A DNA stretch of 50,517 nt from the NCBI GenBank assembly GCA_964522985.1, contig CAZFXX010000001.1:1-50517 (forward strand), read 5' to 3'. The position numbers and the translations under genes were made by a program. The stretch is from an uncultured Desulfobacteraceae bacterium (GTDB lineage: Bacteria; Desulfobacterota; Desulfobacteria; Desulfobacterales; 4572-123). Positions 20,886 through 50,517 of this stretch are shown here, one piece after another. The notes under the pieces were generated by a model, which worked only from the letters and a program-made list of their open reading frames with translations, was not told the DNA's origin and did no database searches. The number at the start of each line of letters is the position of its first letter. Position 1 is the first letter of the stretch.

Positions 20886-21474
20886 TGAATACTTCCTCCT
20901 TTAATTTAATTATAGTTTGAAAAAACACCTCACAAGCTTCCCCGTATAACCAAACAGACGATTACAATAGTGTTCCGCCAGACCGCACCGGGGTGACGAT
21001 ATTATTCGGATACCCCTTGCTTGATCTTACCACCAATTCATTTTTAACATCAAACATCGTTTGATTATATTGAGCAAAGCTTTAAAATATTAAGGTTGTC
21101 ACATACCATGTGAGCTTTATCTTGGCAAGAAATATGTTTTCATAAAAAATAAAAACATAAGCGGTTAGTTTGCCCGGGAGAAGCTGATTTATCAACCCGA
21201 GGCTAAAAAATATCTTTCGGTCAACGGAAAACACCCCATATCTTTAAAAAAGTTAACATCCTTCCAAAATCCATTGCAAGATCGATTCTTAATAGTGCTG
21301 CCGGTTGTCATTATTGCAAAATTAGAATTGCCAAAACCGTTGGATTAGGCTTGACAAATCGCCTCGTCCTTATTAAAAACAGTATTTCTATACATGTGTA
21401 ATATTATTGAGTTGGAGCTATAATATTAGTGACACAAGCTATAATAAACCGCAAGTGAAAGGAGACTAAAGCAA

Positions 21475-25970: not shown

Positions 25971-26198
25971 ATCTTTTCTTTTTGAATCTTGTAATCTTCA
26001 CACGAAAGATATTTATAAAAAAAAAACTTACTCATCAATAACCGGCCTGTAAAGAATTTTTAGTATTTTCAATATATTATAGTAATAATACTCGGTTGGG
26101 GCGCGCCTATGAATCTATACAGCCCATTATCACGAGAAAAATTTTTTTTAACACCCAGCCCAAAACGAACACAAGTTTTATAGTCAGGGTTCTGAGAC

Positions 26199-26999
26199 CT
26201 ATTGAAGGGTATCATTTTTGTTTTGTTTCGGGAAAATTATTAATTTCCTATAAAACCCCTGCCCTCGGCTTTGGGTTCTGACGCTGGTGTCAGCTTTCAA
26301 GGCGATATGAACGATCCGCCGATCATGGGCGTTGAGCTGTCCCAAAGAAACAGGCTTGCCGGTTTTTTTTGATTTATCGGCCAGCTTTTCAGCCATCTCC
26401 ACAAGCTTTATTTCCTTATTTTTTATATAGTCTTCAATATCGACTCTTACCCTAATTCTGTTTTCACGGTTCTTGTTTACGATTTTTTCAAGTACATATT
26501 GAATCGCTTCCAATGTCTGCCCTCTTTTTCCTATCAGCCGTGAAGCGTCTCCACCAGATATCAAAAAATTAATTACTTCCGGTTCCTGAGCAACCGTAAT
26601 TTCGGCATCATTGCTGATACAGTCGATAATTCTTTTTAATGCCCTGCGCCCTTTTTCACCAGGGTCTATAAGTTCATCAACAACCGCTTCCGGATTGACC
26701 TTTTTTTCGTTCTGATCGATTTTTTCTATAGCGAATTCATTTTTGCTTCTGATTTTATCTGGAACAATTGGTTGGGGTTGCTTTTCCCTCACATTATTGG
26801 GCTTTTTTACTTGTTCATTATTTTCCTCAAGGATAACCCTGATTTTAGCCCTTTTCCGCCCTACCAGCCCAAAAATTCCGGTTGATCCATATGAGATGAT
26901 CTCATATTTCAAATTTTCTTTGCTTTTGTTCAGCTTCGTGCTGGCGGCATTTATTGCCTTTTCCACATTTTTGGCTTCGAACTCAAAACTTGGAGCCAT
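26199..26999 (-). CDS. jag: Jag/KhpB RNA-binding protein (Jag_N-KH-R3H)
   Basis: 266 aa, immediately downstream of yidC. The KH-like core is GKRGQTLEAIQYV and the R3H motif is HDRRIVHIAL. TAG stop. Confidence 0.85.
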   Translation of the reverse strand: MAPSFEFEAKNVEKAINAASTKLNKSKENLKYEIISYGSTGIFGLVGRKRAKIRVILEENNEQVKKPNNVREKQPQPIVPDKIRSKNEFAIEKIDQNEKKVNPEAVVDELIDPGEKGRRALKRIIDCISNDAEITVAQEPEVINFLISGGDASRLIGKRGQTLEAIQYVLEKIVNKNRENRIRVRVDIEDYIKNKEIKLVEMAEKLADKSKKTGKPVSLGQLNAHDRRIVHIALKADTSVRTQSRGQGFYRKLIIFPKQNKNDTLQ

Positions 27000-27014
27000 T
27001 TGAAACCTCCGTTA

Positions 27015-28670
27015 TTATGCCATTTTCTTTTGTGTATAATACTGTTGAGCAATAGAAAGAATGTTATTTATAAGCCAGTATAAAACGAGTCCTGATGAAA
27101 AATTTATAAAAATAACTGTGAATATAACCGGCATAAACATCATCATTTTGGCCTGTGTCGGATCTCCCGGACTAGGTGTCAATTTTTGCTGTAAAAACAT
27201 TGTCGCCCCCATCACGATAGTTAAAACAGGGATACCGTACGGGGGTTCCATGAAAGGTATTGAAATATCAAAATGAAACAATCGGTCCGGTGCCGACAAA
27301 TCATTGATCCACATAAAGAAAGGCGCGTGCCTTAATTCTATCGCCTCATAGAGCATTCTATAAAGGGCAAAAAAGACGGGCATCTGGACCACCATTGGCA
27401 AACAGCCGCCCATGGGATTGATTTTATATACCTTATACAGTCCCATGAGTTCCTGGTTCATTCTTTTTTTATCATCCTTGTACTTCTCCCTTAGTTCAGC
27501 CATCAAGGGTTGGATTTTTTTCATCTCCCCCATTGATTTATAACTTTTGTTGCCGAGAGGCCACAACAATAGCTTTGTGAAGAGGGTCAGTATGATAATG
27601 GCAATTCCATAATTGGGAATAAATCCGTATACAAAATTCATTATCCAGAGGCAGGGTTTGGCAAGTATATCAAACATACCGAAATTAATGGCCTTGCCGA
27701 GCCCGTTGTTAATATCCGCCAGGACTTTCATGCTTTTTGGACCGAAATAGAGATCAAATACAAATTGCTTGTACTCACCGGGATTGATATTTTTCATTTC
27801 GGTTATCAGCCGGCTCTCTATAATATTCTCTTCATGCTGCAAAACCTGCAGTATGGCATCATCTGTATTTCCGGGTATAACACTTTCCAAAAAATAGCGA
27901 TCTTGCAGGGCAATCCAGTTTATCTTGCCTTCAAAAGTATCCTTATCTTTCAGCTTCTTTGTTTTTATTTGTTCGAGTTTCTGGTTGATAAGAGCACTGG
28001 GGCCTGTAAATCCATAAACACGCCCACCTTCAGTGAATGCCTTTTCAATGGACAAAATAAGATGGTCCACCAAGGGGCGGTCCGATCCATTTTTGATTGT
28101 CAGATTGAGACCGATCAGATAGGTATCTGGTGAAAAACTATACTCCTTTTCCACCGTTATACCATCAGTGGAGATCCATATAAATTTAATTGACTGCGTT
28201 TCCGATATTATTTCGATTTTTTCATCACTGACTTCCGCGTTATATACAGCGCCTATCATTTCAGGAATACTTTCGTTTTTGGACCAGGTGCGACAAACAC
28301 CCTTTGTCATATCTTTTGATATTAACTCTTTAAATGGAGATGTTTTTTCAACCGTTTCCCGGTATTTTTTTAACATAAAACTTTTTAAAACAGCGCCGTT
28401 TTCAGATATTTCAGCAGTATACAATTCTGTATCAATCCTAATTGTCCGGCCTGTACCCGCTATTGCTGAAGGTTTTGCAGGAGACTCATTGCCAATACTT
28501 CCGGCACTTAATTCTTCTTCAGGAGTAAATTTTTTTTGTTTTTCAACTTGGAGGACCTGTGTTTCTTCGCTGGTTTTATTGACGGCGTCTTTATCAACAG
28601 TAAAATATTCCCACAAAAAAAACACAAGAAAACTCAATACAATAGCAATAACCACTCTGGATTGATCCAT
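27015..28670 (-). CDS. yidC: Membrane protein insertase YidC
   Basis: 551 aa. It has an N-terminal TM segment, a large periplasmic domain, and the conserved C-terminal core (GCLPMVVQMPVFFALY...). Confidence 0.95.
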   Translation of the reverse strand: MDQSRVVIAIVLSFLVFFLWEYFTVDKDAVNKTSEETQVLQVEKQKKFTPEEELSAGSIGNESPAKPSAIAGTGRTIRIDTELYTAEISENGAVLKSFMLKKYRETVEKTSPFKELISKDMTKGVCRTWSKNESIPEMIGAVYNAEVSDEKIEIISETQSIKFIWISTDGITVEKEYSFSPDTYLIGLNLTIKNGSDRPLVDHLILSIEKAFTEGGRVYGFTGPSALINQKLEQIKTKKLKDKDTFEGKINWIALQDRYFLESVIPGNTDDAILQVLQHEENIIESRLITEMKNINPGEYKQFVFDLYFGPKSMKVLADINNGLGKAINFGMFDILAKPCLWIMNFVYGFIPNYGIAIIILTLFTKLLLWPLGNKSYKSMGEMKKIQPLMAELREKYKDDKKRMNQELMGLYKVYKINPMGGCLPMVVQMPVFFALYRMLYEAIELRHAPFFMWINDLSAPDRLFHFDISIPFMEPPYGIPVLTIVMGATMFLQQKLTPSPGDPTQAKMMMFMPVIFTVIFINFSSGLVLYWLINNILSIAQQYYTQKKMA

Positions 28671-29019
28671 TTTTTTCTCCCTGGGTAGTACGACTCTTTC
28701 TTTGATATTTTAATTGATAGCGAGATTAGAATATTTGCAGTAATTCTTGAGGCAGGTTTCTGAGGACTGTGGAAAAAACAAATTGTCCGGGATAGATTGT
28801 CAATCAACCTTGAATAGAGGCGGCACAATCTTACCAAAGCCGTATTTTCCATACCGGTTTATGGGCCTTGAATGCAGCTCTGTTTCAGGCCAGATCCTTT
28901 TGCAATTATTTTAAGCGCTACCCTGAGAAGTCCTTTTTAAAAACTTGGGTTCTTTAAATTACAAGTATCTATCCACATTTTTGCTGCCATAAACCTGAAC
29001 ATACTTAGCCTTTTCCCTG

Positions 29020-29256
29020 TTATGGTACAGGATCAAATCCCCCGGGATTAAACGGATGACAGCGCAGTATCCTTCTTACAGCCAGCAGAGAGCCTTTCAG
29101 GGCGCCATACTTGGAAACCGCCTGATACGAATATTCTGAGCAACTGGGGTAAAAACGACACGACGGTCCCAAGACCGGGGAAATAAGATACTGATACGTC
29201 CGGATGAGTAGCAAAAATATTCTTTTAATCACGTTTATTATTTGATATTTCATCAA
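29020..29256 (-). CDS. yidD: Membrane protein insertion efficiency factor YidD
   Basis: 78 aa. The sequence [18 protein letters not shown]....GALKG......RILRCHP is the canonical YidD signature. Confidence 0.9.
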
Positions 29257-29548
29257 ATATTCTTTGAAGTGCTGTAAACAATTTTTCAGATGTGGCCTCA
29301 GCAGCAGCCTTGGTTGCGATTATATTTATATCCCAGATTCCTCTTATCGTTAACCTTCGGGTTCTGAAATATTCCCTTACAAGTCGCCTAATTCTGTTTC
29401 TGGTTACAGCACAGCCTACTTTTTTGGTTACAGTTATACCAAGCCGGCAATTTTCGGCTTTTCCGGGTAAAAAATTTCCAATAAAAAGTGCATTTCGGAC
29501 TCTTCTCCCTGACCTGGATAAGCTTATAAATTCATTCCGTTTTAACAA
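29225..29548 (-). CDS. rnpA: Ribonuclease P protein component
   Basis: 107 aa and basic. The RNR-type motif is [22 protein letters not shown]. It overlaps yidD by 32 nt and lies downstream of rpmH. Confidence 0.9.
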
Positions 29549-29624
29549 TCTCTCGAATTTTTTAAAAAAAAACGAAATTTTACTTGATCCCTGTAACCCT
29601 TTTATGTTATTTTTATTAATATTT

Positions 29625-29759
29625 TTAAGCGGTTAGTTTTTGTCTGCCCTTGGCTCTGCGCCTATTTACAATCCTTCGCCCAGCTTTGGTTGACATTCGT
29701 TTTAAAAATCCATGTGTTCTTGCCCGCTTAATTCTGCTGGGTTGATATGTTCTTTTCAT
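29625..29759 (-). CDS. rpmH: 50S ribosomal protein L34 (too short for the ORF track)
   Basis: Hand translation of the minus strand gives [44 protein letters not shown] followed by TAA. Confidence 0.95.
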
Positions 29760-30028
29760 ACTCTTTGGCCCTCTTCTCTATAACTTTATATTCTTATTCT
29801 TACGGAATGTGATCTGTTTTTATTACATATTATTCTTTTTTCTAATATCAAATCTTAATAATTAACCATAATATCACAGATGTGTCAAGCTATAAATAAG
29901 AGAAAACACTGTTGGTAATCGATAGTACGTAATCTTGGAAAGCTCCTTTAAAAACGATGAAAACATGAATTGACCATATTATTGCGCCAACCCTAAGCGG
30001 TTTAAATAATCGACCAAAATCCATTGTT

Positions 30029-31567
30029 TTATTGAGCTATTTCCAAAATATCAAATTCTTCCATATGAAACTTGCTGTTTGGATATATAATGATCTGTTT
30101 TCCGATCTGTTTTTCCAATGATATAATAATACTGTTTTCTTCACCATGGAGAAGTTCAGCAATTTCCGGATTTACCCTGAGTGTTAACCTTGCCCCCGCC
30201 ATATCCGCTACTTCACGCATTATCTCCCTTGAAATATTATAACATATTGTCCGTCTAGATACTAGATAACCTTCTCCATCACAGTAAAAACAGGGTTCAC
30301 AAAGAATCCTGGAAAGAGATTTTCTGATACGTTTCCGTGTCATTTGAATCAAACCCAAATCTGAGATTGGAAGTACGTGTGTCCTGCTCCGGTCCTTCTC
30401 AAGGGCCTCTTTTAATGCATTATAGACCTTTTCCCTATTGACGGTTCTTTCCATATCGATAAAATCAATTATGATAATACCGCCAATATCCCGCAATCTT
30501 ATCTGATATGCAATTTCCTTGACAGCTTCGAGATTTGTTTTTAAAATCGTTTCTTCAAGATTATGTTTTCCGACATATCTTCCCGTATTGACATCAATGG
30601 CCACCAAGGCTTCGGTATGTTCTATAACAATATAGCCTCCGGACTTTAACCAAACTTTCTTTTTTATTGCCCTAAAAATATCCCCCTCAAGGTTATAGGC
30701 GTCAAAAATGGGTTCCAGTCCATCATATAGCTCCACTGAGCTTTTAAGATTCGGCATCAATATATCTAAAAATTCCAGAATAGCGTTATATCCTTTTCTT
30801 GAATCTATGACCAGTTTTTCGGCTTCATGCAGAAGCAAATCCCGCACAGCCCTAAGTGTCAAATTTAATTCCTGATGTAAAATCGCAGGTGCCGAGATAG
30901 TCTGGGCCTTTTTTTGAATATTTTGCCACATATTGTTCAAAAACCCCATCTCATAAACAAGCTTGGATTCCGACACCCCCTCTGCGGCGGTTCTCACAAT
31001 ATAACCGTACGGTTCGGTTCTTAAATTCTCAACACATTTTTTTAAACGAGAGCGTTCGTCTTCATCTTCTATCCGCCTCGATACGCCAATATGGTTTGAC
31101 TTTGGCATCAGCACCAAAAATCTGCCTGGCAGGGATATATATGTATTTATTCTCGCACCTTTTGTACCTATGGGCGCTTTTATCACCTGTACCAATATTT
31201 CCTGGCCATCACGGATAAGTTCTTCAATTAGATGATTTTGTGGGGCCGAAATTTTTTGTTCCTCTTTTCCGGAAATATCCTCTAATTCCACTTTATTTAA
31301 AAATTTTTCATACGCCTCACTACTTTCATCGATTATATCATCAACATAAATAAAAGCCGCCTGATTCAATCCGATATCCACGAAAGCGGCCTGCATTCCG
31401 GGCAGTACCCTCTGCACCCTGCCTTTGTATAAATTACCGGCAATATCCGAATCATCATTTCTCTCTATAAATATCTCGGTAATTGTTCCGTCTTCCAGAA
31501 GTGCCATGCGCGTTTCATGGTCTGTGGCGTTTATAACTATTGTTTTATACATTGGGTTTTTTCTCAA
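30029..31567 (-). CDS. rng: Rne/Rng-family ribonuclease (RNase G-like)
   Basis: 512 aa. The N-terminal S1 domain (GNLYKGRVQRVLPGMQAAFVDIG) is followed by the RNase E/G catalytic core (AIDVNTG..., IIIDFIDM). Confidence 0.85.
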   Translation of the reverse strand: MRKNPMYKTIVINATDHETRMALLEDGTITEIFIERNDDSDIAGNLYKGRVQRVLPGMQAAFVDIGLNQAAFIYVDDIIDESSEAYEKFLNKVELEDISGKEEQKISAPQNHLIEELIRDGQEILVQVIKAPIGTKGARINTYISLPGRFLVLMPKSNHIGVSRRIEDEDERSRLKKCVENLRTEPYGYIVRTAAEGVSESKLVYEMGFLNNMWQNIQKKAQTISAPAILHQELNLTLRAVRDLLLHEAEKLVIDSRKGYNAILEFLDILMPNLKSSVELYDGLEPIFDAYNLEGDIFRAIKKKVWLKSGGYIVIEHTEALVAIDVNTGRYVGKHNLEETILKTNLEAVKEIAYQIRLRDIGGIIIIDFIDMERTVNREKVYNALKEALEKDRSRTHVLPISDLGLIQMTRKRIRKSLSRILCEPCFYCDGEGYLVSRRTICYNISREIMREVADMAGARLTLRVNPEIAELLHGEENSIIISLEKQIGKQIIIYPNSKFHMEEFDILEIAQ

Positions 31568-34094
31568 TTTCGTCGGTTACCATGTATTTGCTTGACACTT
31601 TCAATACTCTGACGCTTTTGCATTCCATTTCAGAAAGGGTGAAAATTTTTTTAATTATATCACCGGGCCTGGCTGATTTCCCTGTCACCTTTCTAATTTT
31701 CAGCGTTAACCTGTTTGAATTTTCAGCATCAATCTCTATTACTATATCTTTTAAGTTTATTTTTTTCAACTTCCCTTTTTTACTAAATTTGGTAATGGTC
31801 ACGGATTTTTCAGCAATAAAGCGATCAAGGGCATCTTTCTTAAAAATATCATCCTCGCTGTTTATTAAATAATCCGTTATTTCAATTTGTTTTCTTTTTA
31901 CCTTACGTGGTTCAACTTCGCAGTCTTTTAATATCAGACCTTCCGGCAGCTCCGCATTTATCGATCGAATCAGTGTAGCGGATTTGATCGATCCGGGTAC
32001 GGTTAAATAGAATTTTTCATAAAGACTTTCGGTACCGATCGGCAAGGGGTCTTCAAAGCTTATCTTAGGCAGCGGATGAAAACCGTTAGAATACTTCACG
32101 GCGATTCCTGCACGCCTTACGGCTCTCAAAATGATATTAACCATCTCAAGATGACCAAAAAATCGAGCCATGCCTGTTTTTGAATAGACTATTTTCAGTC
32201 TTTTAAAAACCGCATCATCTTTTTTATTATTTAATTTAAAGGTGTCCTTTTTTATATTGTCACAGTTAAAGACCTGCGGCCTTATACTTTTAAAATCACA
32301 AACCCCACATTGATCGCATTTTCCCCAGCGGCAGTCATCCGTTATACCGCCTTTGTCGGCCTTTTGGCGCTCATTTATTAAATAATCTTTTGTCACACCA
32401 ATATCGATATGGTTCCAGGGCAATGGCTCATTCAGGGCCCTGGGCCTTGTCGTAAAAAAATTCATATCTATCATAGCGTCAGCAGCCGCTTCTTGCCATA
32501 ACTGAAAATTGAACTGGTCACTCCACCCGTCAAACCGGCACCCTTTTTCATACGCCGTTTCCAACAATTCTGAAAGTCGACGGTCTCCTCTGGACCACAG
32601 CCCTTCGATTAAACTAACCTTGGGGTCTTGCCATTTGACATGAATTCCAGGCATTTTTAGCCAAGACTTTAGTTTTTTTATTTTATCTATAGATTCTTCC
32701 AATGAAATCTGGGAAAACCATTGAAAAGGGGTATGCGGTTTAGGTATCATGGTTGTTATGCTGACATTAATCCTGGCCTGGTATTTACCCGATCCCCCTT
32801 TTTTCCGTAATTTATTCACAAGATCAACGATCTCGTGCAAATCCTCCTTGGTTTCGGTCGGCAGTCCAATCATAAAGTACAACTTGATAAGGCGCCATCC
32901 CATTTGGAAAGCATCACTTACGGTATCGCATATTTCCTGTTCACTTATGTTTTTGTTGATGACATTCCGTAACCGCTGACTCCCGGCTTCGGGGGCAATC
33001 GTAAAACCTGTTTTTCTAACCTTTTTAATCTGCTTCATTAATTCCGATGTCATAGTACCGGCTCTTAGGGACGGCAAAGAAACGGCGATATGGTCCCCCT
33101 CACAGCGCTGCATAAGCGCTTGCATCAGTTCTCCAACGGCTGTATAATCTCCCGTGCTTAGTGATAAAAGAGAAATTTCATCATACCCTGTAGATGACAA
33201 CGATTTCATCGCCAGATTCATCAAATTATCAACCGATCTCTCCCTTACAGGGCGATATATCATACCAGCCTGGCAAAAACGACACCCCCGGGTACACCCC
33301 CGGGCTATTTCCAGACGCAATCTGTCGTGCACCGGTTTGCCAAAAGGAACAACGGGTGCATCCGGAAAAGGGGCTTTATTTAAATCGGTTAATATCGCTT
33401 TTTTTACACTAAAATAATCTTTTTTCAACGGTTTCAGTATTTGAAACCCTTTTGTATTAAACTCGGGACTAAAAAAAGAGGGGATATATACCCCCTCCAG
33501 CGCAGACCACATTTCAAACAATCTTTCTTTACCGGTATTCTCTTTTTTTTTCCACTTCTGCCAAAGCCGTATCATCTCCATGATTACATCTTCGCCGTCT
33601 CCGATTACCATCGCATCAAAAAAGTCCGCCACGGGTTCAGGATTACACGTACAGGGACCACCGGCAATTATTAAAGGAAATGAATCATCTCTTTGAGCGG
33701 CCCGAAACGGAATTCCGGCCAGATCCAGCATCAAAAGAACATTTGTATAATTCAGCTCATATAACAAACTGAAACCGACAATATCGAATTTATCCAGCGG
33801 AATACCTGTTTCCAGTGAAGCCAGCGATACTTTAAATTTTCTGAGGTAAGCTGCCATATCATTGCGAGGTGCAAAAACTCTTTCCGCAATACAATCAGCG
33901 TTACTATTGATAATATGGTATAAAATCTGAATTCCGAAATGAGATGTCCCAAGTTCATAAAGATCCGGAAATGCCAGTGCTATTTTATGTCTACCCCGGG
34001 CCTGTTCCTTTTTTTTTGTATTCACTTCAGAACCCAGATAGAGACTTGGTTTTTCAACCAGAGGCAAAATATCCTTCATTTTTTTAATACTCAT
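31545..34094 (-). CDS. B12-binding-like radical SAM protein fused to a radical-SAM-associated (DUF2344-like) C-terminal domain
   Basis: 849 aa. The ARGCTRGCRFCQAG cluster is present. The architecture and position directly upstream of an Rne/Rng gene match my recollection of the TIGR03960 + TIGR03936 families. It overlaps rng by 23 nt. Confidence 0.8.
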   Translation of the reverse strand: MSIKKMKDILPLVEKPSLYLGSEVNTKKKEQARGRHKIALAFPDLYELGTSHFGIQILYHIINSNADCIAERVFAPRNDMAAYLRKFKVSLASLETGIPLDKFDIVGFSLLYELNYTNVLLMLDLAGIPFRAAQRDDSFPLIIAGGPCTCNPEPVADFFDAMVIGDGEDVIMEMIRLWQKWKKKENTGKERLFEMWSALEGVYIPSFFSPEFNTKGFQILKPLKKDYFSVKKAILTDLNKAPFPDAPVVPFGKPVHDRLRLEIARGCTRGCRFCQAGMIYRPVRERSVDNLMNLAMKSLSSTGYDEISLLSLSTGDYTAVGELMQALMQRCEGDHIAVSLPSLRAGTMTSELMKQIKKVRKTGFTIAPEAGSQRLRNVINKNISEQEICDTVSDAFQMGWRLIKLYFMIGLPTETKEDLHEIVDLVNKLRKKGGSGKYQARINVSITTMIPKPHTPFQWFSQISLEESIDKIKKLKSWLKMPGIHVKWQDPKVSLIEGLWSRGDRRLSELLETAYEKGCRFDGWSDQFNFQLWQEAAADAMIDMNFFTTRPRALNEPLPWNHIDIGVTKDYLINERQKADKGGITDDCRWGKCDQCGVCDFKSIRPQVFNCDNIKKDTFKLNNKKDDAVFKRLKIVYSKTGMARFFGHLEMVNIILRAVRRAGIAVKYSNGFHPLPKISFEDPLPIGTESLYEKFYLTVPGSIKSATLIRSINAELPEGLILKDCEVEPRKVKRKQIEITDYLINSEDDIFKKDALDRFIAEKSVTITKFSKKGKLKKINLKDIVIEIDAENSNRLTLKIRKVTGKSARPGDIIKKIFTLSEMECKSVRVLKVSSKYMVTDEIEKKPNV

Positions 34095-34432
34095 TATTTA
34101 TTAGTTTACACTCCTCTTATCATTTTTTCATCCTCGTTTTAAAATATTGAATATATGATTGTTCTCTTATACTCATGTTTTAAAAGGCTTTACAAAGTTT
34201 TTATCATAACCGGCCAACTTCCGCCGGTAAACGAAAAATAAAAATACGCTACTTTTTTTCACATCCCCTGTCTCACAATTAAATTTTATTAGGGTTGACC
34301 GGATCACCTCAATAATTGTATTATTTTTCATAACATCCATGCCTTTCGGGTAAAACAAGGCATGAATGTTATTCGCACTGCTCAAAACGCATATATCACT
34401 ACTTTCATATAAATATCAGGAGTAAAATAATT

Positions 34433-35815
34433 ATGAAGCGAATTAAAGTCGTAAACGTATTAAAAAAAAATAATCCTGTGGGAAAAGTGCTTATAAAAGG
34501 CTGGGTCAGGACCATCAGGAATTCAAAAGGGTTTAGTTTTATCGAGGTAAATGACGGTTCATGTTTAAAAAATATTCAGATAGTTGCGGATAATTTACTT
34601 CAAAACTATCAATATATAGAAAAAATAAATACCGGTTCGGCCGTAGCGGTTTCCGGCAGCCTGGTGTCCTCTCCGGGCGGTGGTCAAAAATGGGAAATAA
34701 TAGCTAAAAACATTGATATTCTCAGTTCCGCGACCGAAGATTACCCGCTTCAGAAAAAACGCCACAGTGATGAATTTTTAAGAACAATCGCTCATCTAAG
34801 GCCGCGCACCAATAAATATGGCGCAGCTTTTCGAATAAGATCCGAACTTGCATTTGCCATTCATGCTTTTTTCAGGAAAGAGGGCTTTTTTTATATCCAC
34901 ACACCTATTTTAACCGGGTCTGATTGCGAAGGTGCCGGTGAACTTTTCCAGGTAACCTCCCTCGATCTCCAGAATATCGTTAAAAAAAATAACAAAGTGG
35001 ATTATACCAACGATTTTTTTGGAAAGCTTGCCAACCTAACCGTATCCGGCCAATTATCCGCTGAAATGTTTTCCCTGGCCTTAGGAGATGTTTATACCTT
35101 TGGCCCCACCTTCAGGGCTGAAAATTCCAACACCCGCCGTCACGTAGCCGAATTCTGGATGGTTGAGCCGGAGATGGCTTTCTGTGATCTTACAGGCAAT
35201 ATGGACATAGGCGAAAAATTGATAAAAACCACCGTATCTCATGTTTTAAAAAATTGCGAAGATGATATTTCCCTTTTTACCCGGTTTGTCGATAAGAAAC
35301 TTGATAAAACCCTTAAAAATATTATCGATTCCGATTTTATCAGAATTACGTATGACGAGGCGATCCGTATCTTAAAAAAATCTAAAAGAAACTTCGAGTA
35401 CCCGGTATCCAGGGGGAAAGACCTTCAGTCCGAGCATGAATGCTTTTTGACAGAGCATTATTTTAAAAAACCGGTTATTCTTATCGATTATCCAAAGAAT
35501 ATAAAGCCTTTTTACATGAGGGTCAATGATGACAACAAGACAGTTGCCGCCATGGATATACTGGTCCCAAAAATCGGTGAAATCATCGGGGGCAGCCAGC
35601 GCGAGGAACGCCTCTCTTTTATTGAGAACAGAATGACGGAAACCGGTTTATCAAAAGAGGCATATTGGTGGTATCTTGATTCAAGACGTTATGGGTCCGT
35701 GGCGCACAGCGGATTTGGATTGGGATTTGAAAGGCTTCTCATGCTGGTAACAGGTATATCAAACATCCGGGATGTTATCCCTTTCCCACGCACACCCAAT
35801 TCCATAGAATTCTGA
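34433..35815 (+). CDS. asnS: Asparagine--tRNA ligase
   Basis: 460 aa. It has an N-terminal OB anticodon-binding domain. Class II motifs are FRAENSNTRRHVAEFWMVEPE and GFGLGFERL. Confidence 0.93.
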   Translation: MKRIKVVNVLKKNNPVGKVLIKGWVRTIRNSKGFSFIEVNDGSCLKNIQIVADNLLQNYQYIEKINTGSAVAVSGSLVSSPGGGQKWEIIAKNIDILSSATEDYPLQKKRHSDEFLRTIAHLRPRTNKYGAAFRIRSELAFAIHAFFRKEGFFYIHTPILTGSDCEGAGELFQVTSLDLQNIVKKNNKVDYTNDFFGKLANLTVSGQLSAEMFSLALGDVYTFGPTFRAENSNTRRHVAEFWMVEPEMAFCDLTGNMDIGEKLIKTTVSHVLKNCEDDISLFTRFVDKKLDKTLKNIIDSDFIRITYDEAIRILKKSKRNFEYPVSRGKDLQSEHECFLTEHYFKKPVILIDYPKNIKPFYMRVNDDNKTVAAMDILVPKIGEIIGGSQREERLSFIENRMTETGLSKEAYWWYLDSRRYGSVAHSGFGLGFERLLMLVTGISNIRDVIPFPRTPNSIEF

Positions 35816-35895
35816 GGGCCGGCTCATCTGAATTAAGCATCAAAAAAAGCCAATTCATCACTTTCCGATTCGGCCTTTTCCGATTCAGGTTTTCG

Positions 35896-38331
35896 TTATA
35901 TATCAAGCGTACTTACTTCGAGGGCATTATTGTAAATAAACTCTCTACGAGGTTCCACTTCATCTCCCATCAGAACGGTAAAAATATCATCGGTTCCCAC
36001 AGCATCTTTAACTCTTACCTGTAAAAGATTCCTTTTTTCCGGATTCATTGTGGTTTCCCAGAGTTGATTCGGATTCATTTCACCCAGACCCTTATACCGC
36101 TGGATACTTACCCCTCTTTTTCCCACTTCCATCATATATTCTAAAAATTTTCTTTTATTTTCTATGATATCCTCATTTTTTTCTTTGTTATCATCTATAT
36201 TTCTAACTTTAAAAGGTGGCTTATTAAATTTTTCTATTTTTTCCGCCAAAATTAGGCATTTTTGAAAATCTTTCGAATATATCAACCTTTTTCCAATCGT
36301 AACGGCTCTTGAATCCTGCCCCCTTTCATCGGGCCGGATTTGTTCTTCTTCCATTTTTTCAACCATTAACTCAAAAATATTCAAACCACTGTTCCACGAA
36401 AGTACCCCTGTTTCATATCTTTTTTGGGTTAATTTTTCCCTCAGTTTATTCATTTTGTCTCTATCCTGAAGAAAGTACTTGTCCTTTGCTTTTTCAGCGA
36501 TCAGCAATTCTATCAGGGTATTGTCAAATCCCATTTTTTCAAGTCTTAAAATTGTCGAATAGTATTCATAAAGATCTTCTAAAAAAAGGGCCATGTCATA
36601 GTCTGATACAATCTTACCATCGTTCAGAATTATTTTTTTTAAGCTACAGACTCTGTTAATAATATATTCGCTCAGCCCCATTTCATCTTTCAGGTATATT
36701 TCATTTTTTTTTCCTTTACCGACCTTTAAAAGGGGCGGTTGAGCCACATATAAATACCCTTTATCAATGAGTTCGGGCATCTGACGATAAAAAAAGGTTA
36801 AAAGAAGTGTTCGGATATGGGAGCCATCGACATCGGCATCGGTCATTATGATTACTTTGTGATATCTTATTTTTTCAATATTATACTCTTCCTTGCCCAC
36901 ACCGGTTCCAAGGGCTGTAATAAGATTTCTGATCTCCTCGCTGCGTAGCAGTTTATCAAAACGCGCTTTTTCAACATTTAATATTTTTCCCCTGAGAGGC
37001 AAAATTGCCTGAAATTTTCTATCTCTTCCCTGTTTTGCACTACCGCCGGCCGAATCTCCCTCAACTATAAAAATTTCTCTTTTCTCGGGTTCGGAAAATT
37101 GACAATCGGCCAGCTTTCCAGGCAGGGTTGAATCAATCAAAGATCCTTTATTACGGGCTAAATCACGTGCCCTGCGGGCAGCGTCTCTGGCTCTTGCAGC
37201 CTCGACTGCTTTGAAAATTATTTTTTTTATAATGGCCGGATTTTCTTCAAAAAATATACCCAGCTTGTCGTTGATCAGAGACTCTACAAGACCTTTCACC
37301 TCGCTGTTACCGAGTTTTGTCTTGGTTTGACCTTCAAATTGAGGGGATTTTATCCTAACGCTTATAATCGCTGTAAGTCCTTCCCTTACATCATCACCGC
37401 TTATTTTGACCTGCATGTTCTTGGGAAGATTGCCGTTGGCGCAATAGTTATTAATGGTCCTTGTCAGTCCGGCTTTAAATCCGATGAGATGAAATCCACC
37501 TTCTACCGTATTTATATTGTTGGCAAATGAAAATATTTTTTCTTTATATGTATTATTATACTGAATCGCCACTTCAACCTGAACATCGTTTTTATCACCC
37601 TCTATTATAATAGGCTCGTGCAGTGGGTTATTGAGTCTGTTCAGATATTCCACAAAAGAGAAAAGCCCACCTTCATAATGAAAAGTGTCTTTTTGGTCCG
37701 AACGTTCATCCTCTATTTTTATGGTTACGCCCTTATTTAAAAAAGCCAACTCCCTTACCCGGCGGCTTAATATTTCATAGCTGTATTCCACTTTATTAAA
37801 TATATCTTCATCCGGGAAAAAATGTATCTTAGTGCCTCTTTTTTTCGTTTTGCCAATTATTGTCAGCTCATCTTGTTTAGTTCCTTTTTTATAAACCTGG
37901 TGGTATATTTTATTGTTTAAATAAATTTCGACTTCAAGGTAACTGGCCAGTGCATTCACAACCGAGACACCAACACCGTGGAGTCCGCCCGACACTTTAT
38001 AACTATCGTTATCAAACTTGCCGCCGGCATGCAATTTGGTTAAAACAACTTCAACTGCCGGAATATTTTCTGTCTTATGAATACCAATCGGAATTCCCCG
38101 GCCGTTATCCTCAACACTGATACTGTTATCCGGATGAACCGTTACTTGAATAGTATCGCAAAATCCGGCCATGGCTTCATCTATACTGTTATCAACAACC
38201 TCATACACAAGATGATGAAGGCCTTCTACATCTACATTTCCAATATACATTGAAGGCCTTAACCTTACAGGTTCAAGACCTTCAAGAACATCTATACTGC
38301 TTGCATCATAATTATTTTCAATATTTTCCAT
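35896..38331 (-). CDS. gyrB: DNA gyrase subunit B
   Basis: 811 aa. Motifs are GLHHLVYEVVDNSIDE, EGDSAGGS and PLRGKILNVE. The C-terminus is ...ALEVSTLDI. The start overlaps the dnaN stop (TAATG). Confidence 0.97.
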   Translation of the reverse strand: MENIENNYDASSIDVLEGLEPVRLRPSMYIGNVDVEGLHHLVYEVVDNSIDEAMAGFCDTIQVTVHPDNSISVEDNGRGIPIGIHKTENIPAVEVVLTKLHAGGKFDNDSYKVSGGLHGVGVSVVNALASYLEVEIYLNNKIYHQVYKKGTKQDELTIIGKTKKRGTKIHFFPDEDIFNKVEYSYEILSRRVRELAFLNKGVTIKIEDERSDQKDTFHYEGGLFSFVEYLNRLNNPLHEPIIIEGDKNDVQVEVAIQYNNTYKEKIFSFANNINTVEGGFHLIGFKAGLTRTINNYCANGNLPKNMQVKISGDDVREGLTAIISVRIKSPQFEGQTKTKLGNSEVKGLVESLINDKLGIFFEENPAIIKKIIFKAVEAARARDAARRARDLARNKGSLIDSTLPGKLADCQFSEPEKREIFIVEGDSAGGSAKQGRDRKFQAILPLRGKILNVEKARFDKLLRSEEIRNLITALGTGVGKEEYNIEKIRYHKVIIMTDADVDGSHIRTLLLTFFYRQMPELIDKGYLYVAQPPLLKVGKGKKNEIYLKDEMGLSEYIINRVCSLKKIILNDGKIVSDYDMALFLEDLYEYYSTILRLEKMGFDNTLIELLIAEKAKDKYFLQDRDKMNKLREKLTQKRYETGVLSWNSGLNIFELMVEKMEEEQIRPDERGQDSRAVTIGKRLIYSKDFQKCLILAEKIEKFNKPPFKVRNIDDNKEKNEDIIENKRKFLEYMMEVGKRGVSIQRYKGLGEMNPNQLWETTMNPEKRNLLQVRVKDAVGTDDIFTVLMGDEVEPRREFIYNNALEVSTLDI

Positions 38332-39449
38332 TATATTCTCATCGGCATTATTACACTTATAAAATTTTTATTATCCATCCCTTCAAGTAAACAGGGACTT
38401 TCATTATCCTTAATATAAAGAACTACAGTATCGCCATTAATCAAACCAAGGGTATCTATAAAATATTTTGGATTAAAGGCTGCCTCAATCACATCTCTGT
38501 TGAAGTTTATAACCATATCCTCTTTTGATTCACCTATATCGGGATTGGTTGCCGTTATGGTAAGGGTATCATTTTTAAAACTGAATATGGCACTCTTGTA
38601 TTCATCTGAAAATAAAATAGACATTCTTTTAAGCATCATTATAAAAAGTTTTATGTCTATTTCTAATATATTTTCATCTTTTTTTTCAATGACATCGGCA
38701 TACTCGGGAAAATCGCCTTCAAGAAGCCTTACAATAATGGTTTCTCTGTCTTTTTTTATGATCAGTTTATCATCTTTGTTTCCTATCTTCACCATCCCGT
38801 CTCTATTCAGGAACTTGGCAACTTCGGACAATCCTTTTTTGGGGATAATAATATTTTCCGCCGTTTGAAACTCAGCATCTTCAGGAACAATATACTCATC
38901 TTTGTTAAGACGGCTGCCGTCCGTCGAAACCATTCGAACAATTTTTTTACCATTTTTTTCTTTTCTTTCAAACAAAATACCGGTCAAATGAGCTCTTTTT
39001 TCATCAGATGGGCTACTTATAATAACTGTATTTTCGATCATTTTTTTTAATACACCGGAATCTATATCAATAAAGCTAACTTCGTCAAAAAACGGGCTTT
39101 CAGGAAAATCATCGGGATTCATTCCTACAATATTATAAAGAACTTTTCCCTCACCTATTTCTATCCAATTATTTTCCACTTCATTGATTAGAATATTATC
39201 GGTTGGAAAATCTTTAATAATTTCATAAAATTTTCTTGCATTAATGGCAATGAGGCCGTCTGTTTCAATTTTGGCAGGATAAAATCCTTCAAAACCGGTT
39301 TCCAGATCCGTTGCTATAATCGCAATACCGGTATCAGTTGATCTAATTAATACATTTTCAGTTATTATAAGATTACTTTTTCTACCAGTTAAGCCTTGAA
39401 TTTTAGAAAGGACATCCAGTATATCATTTTTGTTAACGTTAAATTTCAT
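38331..39449 (-). CDS. dnaN: DNA polymerase III beta sliding clamp
   Basis: 372 aa, three-domain clamp length, immediately upstream of gyrB. The C-terminus is ...VIMPMRI. Confidence 0.93.
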   Translation of the reverse strand: MKFNVNKNDILDVLSKIQGLTGRKSNLIITENVLIRSTDTGIAIIATDLETGFEGFYPAKIETDGLIAINARKFYEIIKDFPTDNILINEVENNWIEIGEGKVLYNIVGMNPDDFPESPFFDEVSFIDIDSGVLKKMIENTVIISSPSDEKRAHLTGILFERKEKNGKKIVRMVSTDGSRLNKDEYIVPEDAEFQTAENIIIPKKGLSEVAKFLNRDGMVKIGNKDDKLIIKKDRETIIVRLLEGDFPEYADVIEKKDENILEIDIKLFIMMLKRMSILFSDEYKSAIFSFKNDTLTITATNPDIGESKEDMVINFNRDVIEAAFNPKYFIDTLGLINGDTVVLYIKDNESPCLLEGMDNKNFISVIMPMRI

Positions 39450-45494: not shown

Positions 45495-46906
45495 CTAAAT
45501 CCCCAGATCGCGTTTAAAAAGATCCACCGAGCGGATATTGATACCCAGAACTTCCGCAATTTTATATTTGGCACGAATACCCTTGGCACTTCCGGCGATG
45601 GATGTGACGGTGCCGATTTTCAGGTCGGCCCTGATGTCCCGCATAACTTCTTCATTGGTCAGATCCATGACATCAATACCGAGCTTGTCCGCTACATATG
45701 CTTTGGCCGCATTAATTTTCATTTTTCGGGTCATCTGCATCCAGGTCACCAGATCTCCGGCGGTTCGTATCCTCCCATACATGAAGCCATGATATGCGCG
45801 TTATGCATCCCTAAGGGGTCACCGACGCCAATCTACAACCCGTCGGCCTTGCCGATCTGGACAAGGGCCTTTGAAACACGGGTCACGGCGTCAATGGGCG
45901 GCTGCTCCATCATTGGGATGCCGCAGACGCCCATGCCCACGTTGGCATGAATCGGGATGTCCGATATATTTGACGCCGCCTTGAGAAACGTTACCGCCCT
46001 GGCCAGGTTCCAGGCAACGGACTCACTGGTGCTGGTGTTGATGGCCAAACCGAAAATATCGGCACCTGCTGATTGCACTACTTTTGCCTGGTCGTGAGGA
46101 TACAGCCCGGCCAGACGTTTGCCGTCGAAGGTCACCTCTCCGTGCATTCCAAGGATAAATTCACCGGATGCCCCCATGAGGATCGGCAGGTCGGGAACTG
46201 CTTTTTTAAGATCCGCCACTGCCTGCAGGGCCGCGAGGAAGTCGGCATCGCCCGCGGAACCGCAGGTATCGAAGTTAAGCCCCTCCAGGCCAACGTCCGC
46301 CAGTCTTTTGCCGATAAAAACAAGATCGTCTCTTAAATATTCGGCAGCCTGTTCCTGAGATTCACGGGCTTCTGCTATTTTTCCCAGCGGAAGCAGTTCA
46401 CCGGGGTTGGGACGGGGGCCGTCCGGCTGGGAGTACAGCCCCAGGTTGGGCTGTGCACCGTAGAATAACGGGGCCGTTGTGACCATTGAGGTGTTATAAT
46501 ACTCACCGGTTTCAAAGTTGATAATCGGTTTTACCGGTTTGTAGCTGTAATCGCTGTGGCCCATGGATGTGGAATCGGCGCCGCAGGCCCGCTCATAGGT
46601 CAAAATGGCCTGCTGCCTGCTCAAAGGTATACCGACACCCCCGCCGTCTTGACCGGAATAAAAACTCATGCTGCAGCCGTCGTCACTGACGATGACTTCC
46701 TCACCAGGGGATACACCGACGATTCTGGAGGGCTCAGCGATGATGTTAAAAAGATGCTCTTTTTCCTCATCGCTGATTTCGGGAATCCCGCCCCTGTCTG
46801 CTGCATCGGCGGTACCGTTGTCTATATCCCCTTTAATATCGGATGCCGCCATCCAGAGACGTTCACCATCCCCCATTCGGGTTAAAATTTGTTTATTCAT
46901 AGACAC
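45495..46906 (-). CDS. mtbB: Dimethylamine methyltransferase MtbB, pyrrolysine (in-frame UAG) type, with an apparent 1-nt frameshift near 45771-45779
   Basis: ORF 45833..46906 ends in TAG (45833-45835). It is collinear with Methanosarcina MtbB as I recall it (RMGDG.R, GVGIP, FDT.G.AGD, AWNLARAVTF.KAA, PPIDAVTR.SKA). Reading on gives IGVGDPLGMHNAHIMASCMGG. The homology (IRTAGDLV...KYKIAEVLGINIRSVDLFKRDLGI) then continues in another frame as ORF 45495..45782. The likely start is ATG 46900. Confidence 0.8.
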
Positions 46907-46918
46907 GCCTTACTTGTT

Positions 46919-48418
46919 TTACTGGTCTGAAATTCCCATTTCCGCCTCTGTTTCTTCCACAATAGAACGAATTTTTACCAGCACCTTTTTCGGAAGCGGT
47001 AATGGGGTATGGTTTTCCAGAATATATTTTACTTTTTCCACGGCCCTCTGGTGGGCAGTTGTAGCGCCGGCATTTTCCCAGACCTCCCTGGATTTGCGAT
47101 CGATCAGTTCCGGTGTGGACTGACTTCGCATTGTCTTAAAGGTATGTTCGTGGGTGAGAAATTCACCGGCGGGACCCACCTCCTTAATTACATCCAGGGC
47201 AATGGTATCGTCATTGACCGGAATACCTTGGACCGTGTGTTTGATCATGCGGGCAAACTCGCAATCTAAAACCAGCTGACCAAAATCAAATGTTATGCCG
47301 CTTTCAACCATTCCCAGACCGTAAATCATATTGGCGCCTGCCAATGCGGGTATCAGTCCGGTGAGGGTTTTTTCATGGCCCATCTGAGTGTCGGATATTT
47401 TCCCGTCGCCCTATCCACCGGCAACATAGCTCGGCAGTGCGTAATAACGGGCCAGACGCGCCACAGCCCCGCTTATCAGGGCGCATTCCGGTGTTCCCAC
47501 GGAGGCAGCGGCCAGTTTCAGGTCCATGGCAGTGGTGGAACTGCCGTAAATGACCGGGGCCCCTTTCCGGGTTAACTGGGAAAGGGTGAGTCCACCCAAT
47601 ATTTCGGCATTATGGGTGACCAGTGCTCCGGCCAGGGTTACCGGTGCGGTTCCTCCGGCCATGGCCATGGACAGGATGTTACATACCACGTTGTTTTTGG
47701 CCGATTCCATAATAATTTCGCAACAGTCCCGGATTAATTGCAAAGGGCTCACCGGACAGGTGGTAAAGGAAACCAGGGGTCTTTTTTTAAGATTTTTCAT
47801 CCCTCCTGCAATGGCCGCGGCCATTTCTAATATTTTATTGAGCAATTTTCCATTGCCCGGGCCAAATGCGCAATGCTTGCTAGTGTGGGTCAGATACACT
47901 TCTGCGTTGTGCAGCGGCACACTGTCCTGGTGGACATCATGGGCACCCAAGGCTTTTTCGCAAAAATCGATTTCATCCAGGTAATCGATAACACGGGCGC
48001 TGTCGATAAGGTCCTTTTTCATGGGGGATCGGTTTTCACCGGTATAAGGATCGTTTATCATCACCCCTTCGCTGAAATTGGTAAAATGGACCCTGTTGCT
48101 TTCCAGCACAATATCGTGTTTGGGATCTCTGCCATATAAAATCACCTTGGAAGGGGCCGAGCGAATGGCATCTTCCACTATGTATGGGGGGATTTTTACA
48201 ATTTTACTGTCCCGGTCCACCAGCGCACCGTTGTCGGCAAAACAATCCAGCGCATTGCTATCTTCGATAAAAATTCCTGTTGTTTCAAGTAGTTCCAGGG
48301 TTGCCAGATGGATTTCGTCGAGTTCGTCATCGGTAAGGATATTGAGGCTCAATCCTCCATTTAAATTTTTTCCCGCATGCAAATTTCTTTTCATAAAATA
48401 GCTACCTAACCCGGACAA
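46919..48418 (-). CDS. mttB: Trimethylamine methyltransferase MttB, pyrrolysine (in-frame UAG) type
   Basis: ORFs 47411..48418 and 46919..47383 share one frame. They are separated only by TAG (47411-47413) plus 9 sense codons (GDGKISDTQ). The context LPSYVAGG-UAG-GDGK...GHEKT matches the Pyl site of Methanosarcina MttB. The joined length is ~491 aa from the likely ATG at 48394. Confidence 0.88.
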
Positions 48419-48578: not shown

Positions 48579-49883
48579 TTACAGGTACTTTTTTAAATAC
48601 GCATAATCCGGGGTCAATTTGCCGTTATACACAATCACTGCTTTGTTAATTTCCGGGCAGAGCCCGGAAGTTTCAAGGGATGTGTGATAATCAGCCGTTA
48701 TTAAGTTGGGCACAAAGGGTTTGAGCTGGTTGCTGAAAAATATGGATGAATCATTGGGCAGTTCACAGGGAAGATTGTCCACGGCCAGCAGGACGATACC
48801 ATCTCCTTTGTGGCCATCAGTGGTGGTGCGAGTGATCGGATCGCAGAGATAGGCCGGCATCTGGGTTTCGGTGGCCTTTACCGTACATTCTACAGCGCCG
48901 TTGATATCACAGCTGATATCGGCAATACCGCAGAGCCTGGGGTGCTTAGTTTCTAAGAAAAGTTTTTTAAGTCCGTCCCATGTGACAAATCTTGGGCACC
49001 TGTTTTCCCAGTAAACCGCGTTGATCAGGATGGAAAGATAGGGTAAAAATTCGTCAAAGCGGCTTTTGTATTTTTCCGGCCGCTGATAGTAGTCATTCAG
49101 ATCAAAAGGGGTATTGTCTTTGCGGCAGACAAGGTCTTTTTCCTTGAAAATAGTAATATATAGGGTTTTATTGTTGATTTTGCCTTTTTTTGTAAGGAAT
49201 TTTAATGCGTCCGGTTCGATTTTTGCGGCTGGCAGACAATCAAGGATCTGCTGGGCACCGCCCGATACATTTCCATATCCCATGATGCCGATGACCATAG
49301 GGCTTAAAGCCTCGGGTAATCCTTTGGTTCTGATAAGGTCACCGATTTTTTTTAAATGGGTGCGGGCATCTTCCACGGAGGCGTATTGATGGGCCCTGCG
49401 ACACTCACGAAAAGGGGTGTCAAGGCCGTGGTGTTCCCAGTACTCGCCCATAAGGGAGAGGATATCGATGGTGCCGGCATCGCCGGCATATCGGCCGAAA
49501 TAAATAAGGCGACGGTTTTGGTCGTCGATTATTTTTTCATAGTCAATAAGGGTCGATCCGCTGGAAATAATTTTTTGTAAAAGCGGCATTCCCGATGCCT
49601 GGCCCTTTATGGTGTGCGAAAAAAAGAGATAGGTCTTGCCGGCAAGGATTTTTTCCTCGGGGATCTCCTTTACACCGAAAATAATATCTCCCGAATTCAT
49701 GCCTTGGCAGGACGCGGCACCGGCGGCTTCATATTCACGGGCTTTGAAAAAGCGTTTTCCCGATTGTTCAACAAAGGCCGTGGCCCGGGTCTGCTGGATG
49801 ATTTCCTGAAGGTCGGCGGGAACGATGGGTGCCCGGCGTTCCCAGATATTTTTATCTTCGGCCCGAATCAGCAATTTTTTCAT
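48579..49883 (-). CDS. Lysine-ketoglutarate reductase (saccharopine dehydrogenase, L-lysine-forming; AASS N-terminal-domain homolog)
   Basis: 434 aa. It is collinear with the LKR half of eukaryotic AASS as I recall it: RAEDKN.WERRAP..P, YLFFSHTIK, LIDYEKI, ICDISCD and VDNLP.ELP. Confidence 0.8.
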   Translation of the reverse strand: MKKLLIRAEDKNIWERRAPIVPADLQEIIQQTRATAFVEQSGKRFFKAREYEAAGAASCQGMNSGDIIFGVKEIPEEKILAGKTYLFFSHTIKGQASGMPLLQKIISSGSTLIDYEKIIDDQNRRLIYFGRYAGDAGTIDILSLMGEYWEHHGLDTPFRECRRAHQYASVEDARTHLKKIGDLIRTKGLPEALSPMVIGIMGYGNVSGGAQQILDCLPAAKIEPDALKFLTKKGKINNKTLYITIFKEKDLVCRKDNTPFDLNDYYQRPEKYKSRFDEFLPYLSILINAVYWENRCPRFVTWDGLKKLFLETKHPRLCGIADISCDINGAVECTVKATETQMPAYLCDPITRTTTDGHKGDGIVLLAVDNLPCELPNDSSIFFSNQLKPFVPNLITADYHTSLETSGLCPEINKAVIVYNGKLTPDYAYLKKYL

Positions 49884-49943
49884 TGCGGTATCTCCCCCTT
49901 AGAAAGGGTTTAACTGTATTGATTTTAGCACAATTTGTCCGGA

Positions 49944-50517
49944 TCAGGTATTTATAGGATCGGTCAGAGTGGTTTTTCGTTCCGTGAAAGCGATATTCAG
50001 GGTTTTCAGCTCGGCCAGCACCGGTTCGTAAATTTCCGGCAACACCGGGATATGAACGCCGGACAGGTCGATTTTTCCTTCTGCAAGCAATTTCGTGGCG
50101 ATGGCTACGGGCAGGCCCACCGTGCGGGACATGGACGTATCGCCACCCGGGATACCGGTATCGATCAGGGTCGATGTGATTATTTCTTTTTTATGGTCCG
50201 GATACTCAGCCGTAAATTCATGATGCTGAATCAACAGGTCTTTTTCACCTTTATGGTAGGTCAGCTTGTTCAGCAGGGTATGGGCAAACATGTCAAATAC
50301 ACTGCAGGTACCGATATCGAGTTTTTCATCGTTAAAAAGGCCGAGCCAGTCAAGTTTTTTGATTGTCAGGGCAAATTCGGGAATTTTAAGATAGGCGGCC
50401 ACCTCTTTTTTCAGGTCAGGTCCATTGCTGTTAATGATATTGGCGATGACCTGACGGGGGGTGATTTCGGAAAAATTAAACTTCATTTTACGATTGAGCA
50501 GGCCCAGTTTTTTGAAA
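49944..50517 (-). CDS. Saccharopine dehydrogenase (L-glutamate-forming), C-terminal part; 5' end beyond the window
   Basis: The frame stays open upstream of the track's ATG to the window edge (FKKLGLLNRK-MKF...). The C-terminal SDH signature is GDTSMSRTVGLPVAIATKLLAEGKI. Confidence 0.75.
   Translation of the reverse strand, partial: FKKLGLLNRKMKFNFSEITPRQVIANIINSNGPDLKKEVAAYLKIPEFALTIKKLDWLGLFNDEKLDIGTCSVFDMFAHTLLNKLTYHKGEKDLLIQHHEFTAEYPDHKKEIITSTLIDTGIPGGDTSMSRTVGLPVAIATKLLAEGKIDLSGVHIPVLPEIYEPVLAELKTLNIAFTERKTTLTDPINT

Follow-up and report, generated by a model that had tools for sequence, protein, structure and literature searches.

Here we describe mtbB, a dimethylamine methyltransferase gene interrupted by an in-frame TAG codon, in a 50,517-nucleotide stretch of DNA (hereafter the window; GenBank assembly GCA_964522985.1, contig CAZFXX010000001.1) from an uncultured Desulfobacteraceae bacterium. 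This TAG almost certainly occupies the pyrrolysine (Pyl) site of MtbB. We conclude that the gene is probably a genuine pyrrolysine-type mtbB that was inactivated very recently, making it a nascent pseudogene, and that the lesion is the loss of one base 21 codons past the TAG. The deletion itself is real, is common to one lineage only and is most likely recent.

An in-frame TAG at the pyrrolysine position of mtbB

The list of open reading frames (ORFs) places an ORF at 45833..46906 on the minus strand, with 357 residues if translated from GTG 46906 and 355 if translated from ATG 46900, the more plausible start of mtbB. An earlier note on this DNA, made from the sequence alone, had reported that the ORF ends at the TAG 45835-45833 and reads on as IGVGDPLGMHNAHIMAS, and re-translation gave the same result. 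Past the TAG, frame 0 continues for 28 codons only (..ASCMGGYEPPEIW) before a TGA, and the remaining MtbB C-terminus lies in the -1 frame (IRTAGDLV...DLGI; IRTAGDLVTWMQMTRKMKI...LFKRDLGI in translation).

To place this gene in a family, we used the 468-residue protein obtained by repairing the frame. This protein matches PF09505 (Dimeth_Pyl) over positions 4-462 of 463 (E 5e-190) and scores 528 bits against the NCBIfam equivalog TIGR02368, [dimethylamine--corrinoid protein] Co-methyltransferase, which has a curated cutoff of 369 bits; even the N-terminal ORF alone scores 375 bits. As residues 5-465 align 1:1 and in register with positions 5-465 of the 466-position TIGR02368 profile, the TAG falls at profile position 356.

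Homologues stop at the same codon. Nearly all of the best 120 protein matches, from 5.8 billion proteins searched, are exactly 355 residues long, indicating that gene callers stop at the same TAG. A homologue scan that took one genome per species yielded 80 loci, mostly from metagenome-assembled genomes and isolates of Desulfobacterales (Desulfocicer vacuolatum, Desulfamplus magnetovallimortis, Desulfacinum infernum), with further loci from Gemmatimonadota, Aminicenantes, Planctomycetes and others. Every locus with a full N-terminal match (77 rows, among them three other assemblies of the window lineage) has TAG directly after residue 355, and TAG occupies codon 356 in 73/73 distinct full-length homologues. 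Approximately 112 conserved in-frame codons follow the TAG in all full-match loci apart from those of the window lineage and two that are cut off early by the end of their DNA. Within this set, the window, L004/L005 and L006/L088 form a clade with 92-93% amino-acid identity, to which we refer as the window clade.

The codons after the TAG carry a signature of purifying selection. Among three lineages of the window clade with a mutual synonymous divergence (dS) of ~0.5-1, the ratio of non-synonymous to synonymous divergence (dN/dS) past the TAG was 0.07-0.10 for mtbB and 0.11-0.14 for the neighbouring mttB. These values are comparable to those of the N-terminal parts of the two genes (0.03-0.06); for mtbB codons 1-355 compared with relatives, dN/dS was 0.04-0.06. 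Purifying selection past the TAG implies that these codons were translated while the clade lineages diverged. On the window branch, mttB acquired 14 synonymous and 4 non-synonymous changes past its TAG, and mtbB as a whole acquired 64 synonymous and 18 non-synonymous changes.

Together, these analyses uphold two claims of the earlier note: that the mtbB TAG lies at the pyrrolysine position of its family, with the mttB TAG likewise at a conserved position, and that independent nonsense mutations do not account for them. For mtbB, the assignment is supported by TIGR02368 position 356, by a match to the PYLIS_2 RNA model that begins at the TAG (see below) and by the uniform presence of TAG in homologues. 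For mttB, a PYLIS_3 match at 47314-47413 starts from the TAG, and the TAG column is common to L004, L005, L006 and L010. Since the aligned homologues share the TAG and the codons after it are under purifying selection, independent nonsense mutations are excluded, and an ordinary nonsense mutation at the mtbB TAG is ruled out on the same grounds of conservation and selection. The note had further implied an intact, pyrrolysine-encoding gene. This part did not stand, as the mtbB frame is broken by a 1-nucleotide (nt) deletion 21 codons past the TAG.

A one-base deletion in a single lineage

The missing base is the third base of Gly-377, 63 nt past the TAG. The closest relatives, L004 and L005, have GGAGGCATACGG in place of the GGAGG-ATACGA of the window, and the alignment to the Rfam model RF02509 contains one gap in the window (GG-AUACGA). 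Due to this deletion, frame 0 terminates at the TGA 45748-45746, and the 91 conserved codons at the end of the gene are shifted into the -1 frame. The strings GGAGGATAC and GGAGGNATAC tell the deleted and intact alleles apart at this site.

An identical 355-residue N-terminus is present in three other assemblies (ENA ERZ27316679, JGI 3300031645 and Logan SRR8862235), and a 381-nt stretch that spans the deletion is 100% identical between the window and L001, L002 and L003. Elsewhere, these assemblies differ from the window by 6 (ENA), 4 (JGI) and 1 (Logan) single-nucleotide polymorphisms (SNPs), so the three are not copies of one record. Of the six SNPs that distinguish L001 from the window over 14.7 kb, three lie in the 490-nt segment of mttB past its TAG; two are synonymous and one causes N441S. 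A fifth allele, P0002, has Cys163 instead of Arg163. The longest contig is 42,385 bp (JGI) both for P0002 and for an 84-residue C-terminal fragment, P0315; this common figure suggests that the two lie on one contig, which is the gene-call pattern of the same frameshift, and hence that the fifth allele carries it as well.

We found no intact C-terminal ORF of the window lineage in the 5.8-billion-protein collection, either by exact look-up or by homology search (best intact match, 92% identical), and the identical deletion is absent from all other homologous loci outside the window lineage. A lineage-specific pattern that matches the window gave no match to deleted or intact alleles in a scan of JGI metagenome contigs, a collection from which the window lineage is apparently absent.

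Downstream of the deletion, the window branch shows 13 synonymous and 5 non-synonymous changes when read in the ancestral frame, and at conserved columns (at least 97% conservation, n=153) the window allele deviates at 0. Two residues, R163 and T386, are unique to the window lineage, and both lie in variable or nearly conserved columns. The dS of the window branch is several tenths. The 13:5 ratio and the lack of deviation at conserved columns indicate either that the deletion is very young relative to this branch or that the C-terminus is still translated.

The RNA element downstream of the mtbB TAG

The Rfam family RF02509 (PYLIS_2) models the 100 nt that start at the UAG of mtbB and derives from an analysis in which no function was established for this downstream element (PMC3639795). 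The window matches RF02509 at 65.3 bits (gathering score, 36) over model positions 1-100.

Comparative data support the 3' part of the element, a hairpin at columns 65-100 after the UAG. In 76 distinct bacterial homologues, its partners are 91.5% paired, compared with 12-47% when the partners are slid, and its covariation score lies above those of all 500 shuffles. Four pairs covary through double changes; one of them joins two four-fold degenerate third positions and occurs as five Watson-Crick pair types and one G-U. The Gly codon GGA at columns 79-81 of the stem does not vary. Support for the 5' helix of the Rfam model is weak.

The deleted base belongs to the basal stem of this hairpin. 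The only other window-specific changes in the hairpin stretch, CGG to CGA and GCC to ACC (G72A and G91A, numbered by alignment column), both break pairs. The predicted stability of the hairpin is -10.3 kcal/mol in the window versus -19.9 kcal/mol in L005, and with a z-score of -0.38 the window hairpin is no better than shuffles.

Pyrrolysine genes and the corrinoid partner

Searches for pylT, pylS, pylB, pylC, pylD and mtbC found none of these genes either in the 50-kb window or within the 10 kb that flank the locus in each clade member. Similarly, a tblastn search with MtbC from L010 gave no match in the window or the clade loci and a match in 50 other loci. A gene for tRNA-Pyl(CUA) lies within 10 kb of mtbB in 22 of the 80 loci, and in most of the 80 the pyl genes are absent within 10 kb. 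L010 (Desulfosarcina sp.) has the order pylT-pylSc-pylB-pylC adjoining a cassette of a non-Pyl MttB homologue, a saccharopine-dehydrogenase-like gene, an AlaDH/PNT-like gene, mttB(TAG), mtbB(TAG) and mtbC; L091 has a compact form, with mtbC-mtbB-mttB adjoining pylSc-B-C-D. We infer that the pyrrolysine machinery of the window organism lies elsewhere in its genome.

With PylSc of L010 as query, the protein collection gave 2693 matches. None of the best 120 of these was tied to the clade, and PylS of L019 was likewise not among the matches listed, so this search is uninformative. A candidate PylS, P0176, led to an unrelated organism and was rejected.

Six of the 32 ORFs in the window end in TAG, among them the mtbB reading frame with its own terminator at 45495-45497. 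If pyrrolysine is decoded, UAG is ambiguous here, as has been reported for other pyrrolysine-using organisms.

Predicted products and alternative explanations

By analogy with the Methanosarcina MtbB mechanism, on which our assumptions about decoding and methyl transfer are based, tRNA-Pyl(CUA) and PylS would decode UAG-356 of the MtbB family as pyrrolysine, and the complete enzyme of 468 residues would take a methyl group from dimethylamine and pass it on to MtbC, its corrinoid partner. With one base lost 63 nt past the UAG in the window lineage, standard decoding would yield a product of 355 residues, if UAG is read as stop, or of 384 residues, if it is read as Pyl. Either product would lack the C-terminal 91 residues that are conserved across phyla, and the predicted terminus of the frame-0 product is ..CMGGYEPPEIW. 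The expected outcome is loss of function of this mtbB copy and a nascent pseudogene. Frameshifting would instead be predicted to produce the peptides ..CMGGIRTAGDLVTWMQ or ..CMGRIRTAGDLV, and finding ..CMGGIRTAGDLV.. or ..CMGRIRTAGDLV.. would contradict the assignment as a pseudogene. Selenocysteine at the frame-0 TGA was also considered and has no support.

Several points weigh against our interpretation of mtbB as a recently inactivated gene. The signature of purifying selection past the deletion is equally compatible with a C-terminus translated through frameshifting or with an artefactual deletion. The samples behind the other assemblies may be related, so their full independence is uncertain. 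Loss of function is assumed from conservation of the C-terminus; a sequence search found no solved structure of an MtbB homologue by which it could be judged. As no pyrrolysine machinery was found in the window or the clade flanks, decoding of UAG as pyrrolysine in the organism is deduced from selection only.

Given these points, we weighed three other explanations of the locus. The missing base could be a sequencing or assembly artefact, with mtbB intact in the organism, and we regard this as quite improbable. The functional appearance of the downstream codons (13 synonymous and 5 non-synonymous changes, with no deviation at conserved columns) would fit an intact gene, and related long-read assemblies contain probable indel artefacts, seen as split genes in L004, L005 and L082. 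However, the deletion is concordant in four assemblies (window, ENA, JGI and Logan), the latter three of which differ from the window at a few SNPs elsewhere, the site (GGAGG/ATAC) is not a long run of one base, and the search for an intact allele gave none. Names of contigs, such as k141_, further suggest short-read assemblies, in which consensus indels are rare.

It is very doubtful that a functional enzyme is still made from the deleted allele, whether at full length, after ribosomes have slipped by -1 at G GGA GGA (45777-45771/45770) as a second recoding event, or as two pieces that act as a split enzyme. The first of these would place two recoding events 21 codons apart in one mRNA, with UAG-356 read as Pyl and the slip on G GGA GGA then restoring the ancestral frame and full-length MtbB; we consider such a double event extremely improbable. 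A slip within the Gly-Gly codons would give ..CMGGIRT.. or ..CMGRIRT.., near or equal to the ancestral sequence, and the downstream codons keep a substitution pattern of the purifying type. In -1 frameshift sites of the dnaX type, a Shine-Dalgarno-like motif and a downstream hairpin accompany the shift site, and the Shine-Dalgarno-like GGAGG of mtbB, with a hairpin ~6 nt downstream, resembles this geometry. However, the likeness is one of geometry only (GGAGG, a G-rich shift site and the hairpin); unlike dnaX-type sites, the 45800-45749 frame overlap contains no canonical X XXY YYZ slippery heptamer, the hairpin is weakened in the window to the values given above, and the frameshift is not conserved in relatives. 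As it is limited to one very young lineage and is absent from the other homologues examined, there is neither time nor evidence for a programmed signal. Production of a separate C-terminal piece would need a start at ATG 45782, upstream of which there is no Shine-Dalgarno motif.

Both TAGs could also be relics in a clade that lacks the pyrrolysine machinery, with mttB and mtbB decaying and TAG now a plain stop. We consider this unlikely. It would agree with the absence of pyl and corrinoid protein genes from the window and the clade flanks, since many other Desulfobacterales have these genes adjacent, as well as with the use of TAG as an ordinary stop in the window, mtbB terminator included, and with an mtbB frame that is already shifted. 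The strong purifying selection past the TAG of both genes in three clade lineages would be unexpected, though, if translation ended at the TAG throughout the clade, and many pyrrolysine-using genomes keep their pyl genes apart from mtbB, as seen in most of the 80 loci, which have none within 10 kb. The window lineage alone may have lost the machinery recently. A genuine pyrrolysine-type mtbB with a very young inactivating deletion thus remains the interpretation that we favor.

Relation to known pyrrolysine systems

We take pyrrolysine to be residue 356 of Methanosarcina barkeri MtbB. The window gene is like M. barkeri MtbB1-3 in matching PF09505 and TIGR02368 over its whole length, in having a single TAG at profile position 356 and in its Rfam match of 100 nt after the UAG. 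It differs in that its host is bacterial, a sulfate reducer of the Desulfobacterales type with sat and the formate-tetrahydrofolate ligase (FTHFS) gene in the window, in the lack of an adjacent mtbC and in a frame broken 21 codons past the Pyl codon. In-frame read-through amber codons were described for MtbB1-3 of M. barkeri (Paul, Ferguson & Krzycki 2000, as cited in PMC9842639 and PMC8318568), and those of Methanosarcina mtbB and mttB, like pyrrolysine itself, are classical (PMC9842639).

Among bacteria, pyrrolysine-type MtbB and MttB, together with pyl genes, were reported in 2007 for a deltaproteobacterium, the delta1 symbiont of Olavius algarvensis (PMC1976440). Marine Desulfobacterales with a dual genetic code expansion are reported to contain Pyl-MttB in several copies, along with a dimethylamine methyltransferase that has Pyl in frame, the latter being present in most such Deltaproteobacteria (PMC8318568). 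The window resembles these systems in its clustered, TAG-bearing bacterial mttB and mtbB, and related loci such as L010 and L091 have pyl and corrinoid protein genes in place, in agreement with the published descriptions of these systems. It differs from them in that the cassette of the window clade has no pyl or corrinoid protein genes within at least 10 kb and in that the window mtbB is frameshifted. Compared with RF02509, the window shares the full-length match from the UAG and belongs to a family whose 3' hairpin covaries in bacterial homologues, whereas it lacks one basal-stem base and has two pair-breaking changes, such that its predicted stability is approximately halved.

The mttB-mtbB pair of the window is therefore a pair of pyrrolysine-dependent methylamine methyltransferases of a type already documented in marine and saline Desulfobacterales; what is distinctive here is that the frameshift is young and that the cassette lies apart from pyl and corrinoid protein genes. 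As the pair is confirmed to be of the Pyl-dependent type, the locus should be annotated with Pyl read-through and not as four fragments. The frameshifted mtbB should be marked as a probable pseudogene before this organism is credited with the use of dimethylamine. The clade offers a small natural case of the persistence or decay of Pyl-dependent genes apart from the pyl genes and the corrinoid partner.

Gene layout and neighborhood

The features of the locus are collected in Table 1. The stop codon of mttB and the ATG of mtbB are separated by 18 nt.

Table 1. Features of the mttB-mtbB locus in the window
Feature	Coordinates	Strand	Evidence or remarks
mtbB N-terminal part, codons 1-355	45836..46900	-	ATG 46900; TIGR02368 positions 5-355, 375 bits
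In-frame TAG, codon 356, pyrrolysine codon of the MtbB family	45833..45835	-	TIGR02368 register; RF02509 match positions 1-3; homologues
Post-TAG codons 357-377, frame 0 (IGVGDPLGMHNAHIMASCMGG); last Gly codon without its third base	45771..45832	-	Translation; alignments to L004/L005 and the Rfam model
1-nt deletion site	between 45771 and 45770	-	Alignments to the Rfam model, L004 and L005
Out-of-frame tail YEPPEIW, frame 0, ending at TGA 45748-45746 (codon 385)	45746..45770	-	Translation
MtbB C-terminal 91 codons, -1 frame, IRTAGDLVTWMQ...KRDLGI, stop TAG 45497-45495	45495..45770	-	TIGR02368 positions 377-465
RF02509 (PYLIS_2) match, 100 nt from the mtbB UAG	45737..45835	-	65.3 bits; 3' part 45737-45771 is the hairpin remnant
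mttB (trimethylamine methyltransferase), upstream neighbor	46919..48394	-	TIGR02369 matches both halves; TAG 47413-47411, with the part past it intact

The mttB-mtbB cassette is conserved across Desulfobacterales. Directly upstream of the pair lies a trio consisting of a non-Pyl MttB-family gene, a saccharopine-dehydrogenase-like gene (Sacchrp_dh) and an AlaDH/PNT-like gene (window 48579-50517, minus strand; L001 4033-8322; L010 4387-8507), which is kept from the window clade to Desulfosarcina (L010). Comparison of L086/L087 with the window and L001 shows that, with respect to its flanks, the Pyr_redox_2-to-mtbB cassette has opposite orientations in the window lineage and in the L006/L086 lineage; one flank consists of a UvrD-like helicase and a LysM protein, and the opposite one of a Metallophos/ParB_N protein and an ABC transporter.

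Some cassettes of relatives contain split genes. In L004, the non-Pyl mttB is split into 222 and 256 residues (3985-5423), in L005 the AlaDH-like gene is split into 66 and 373 residues (7118-8421), and in L082 the mtbB N-terminus is in two pieces (10001-11066). These splits may reflect either indels introduced in assembly or additional decay of the cassette; judged by their names and sizes, the large contigs of L004, L005 and L082 possibly come from long-read assemblies.

The host is an uncultured, Desulfobacteraceae-like sulfate reducer of the Desulfobacterales type. The window regions 19122-22752 and 24573-39449 contain genes for FTHFS and ATP sulfurylase (sat), which fit a sulfate reducer with the Wood-Ljungdahl pathway. 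These regions also contain mnmE, jag, yidC, gyrB and dnaN, which are typical of the region near a replication origin; no dnaA was recognized beside dnaN. The locus at 44-8200 on the plus strand is polyketide- or fatty-acid-synthase-like and is unrelated to mtbB: a 2417-residue ORF that runs in from near the beginning of the window encodes a ketosynthase domain and an acyltransferase domain, and a phosphopantetheinyl transferase comes after it.

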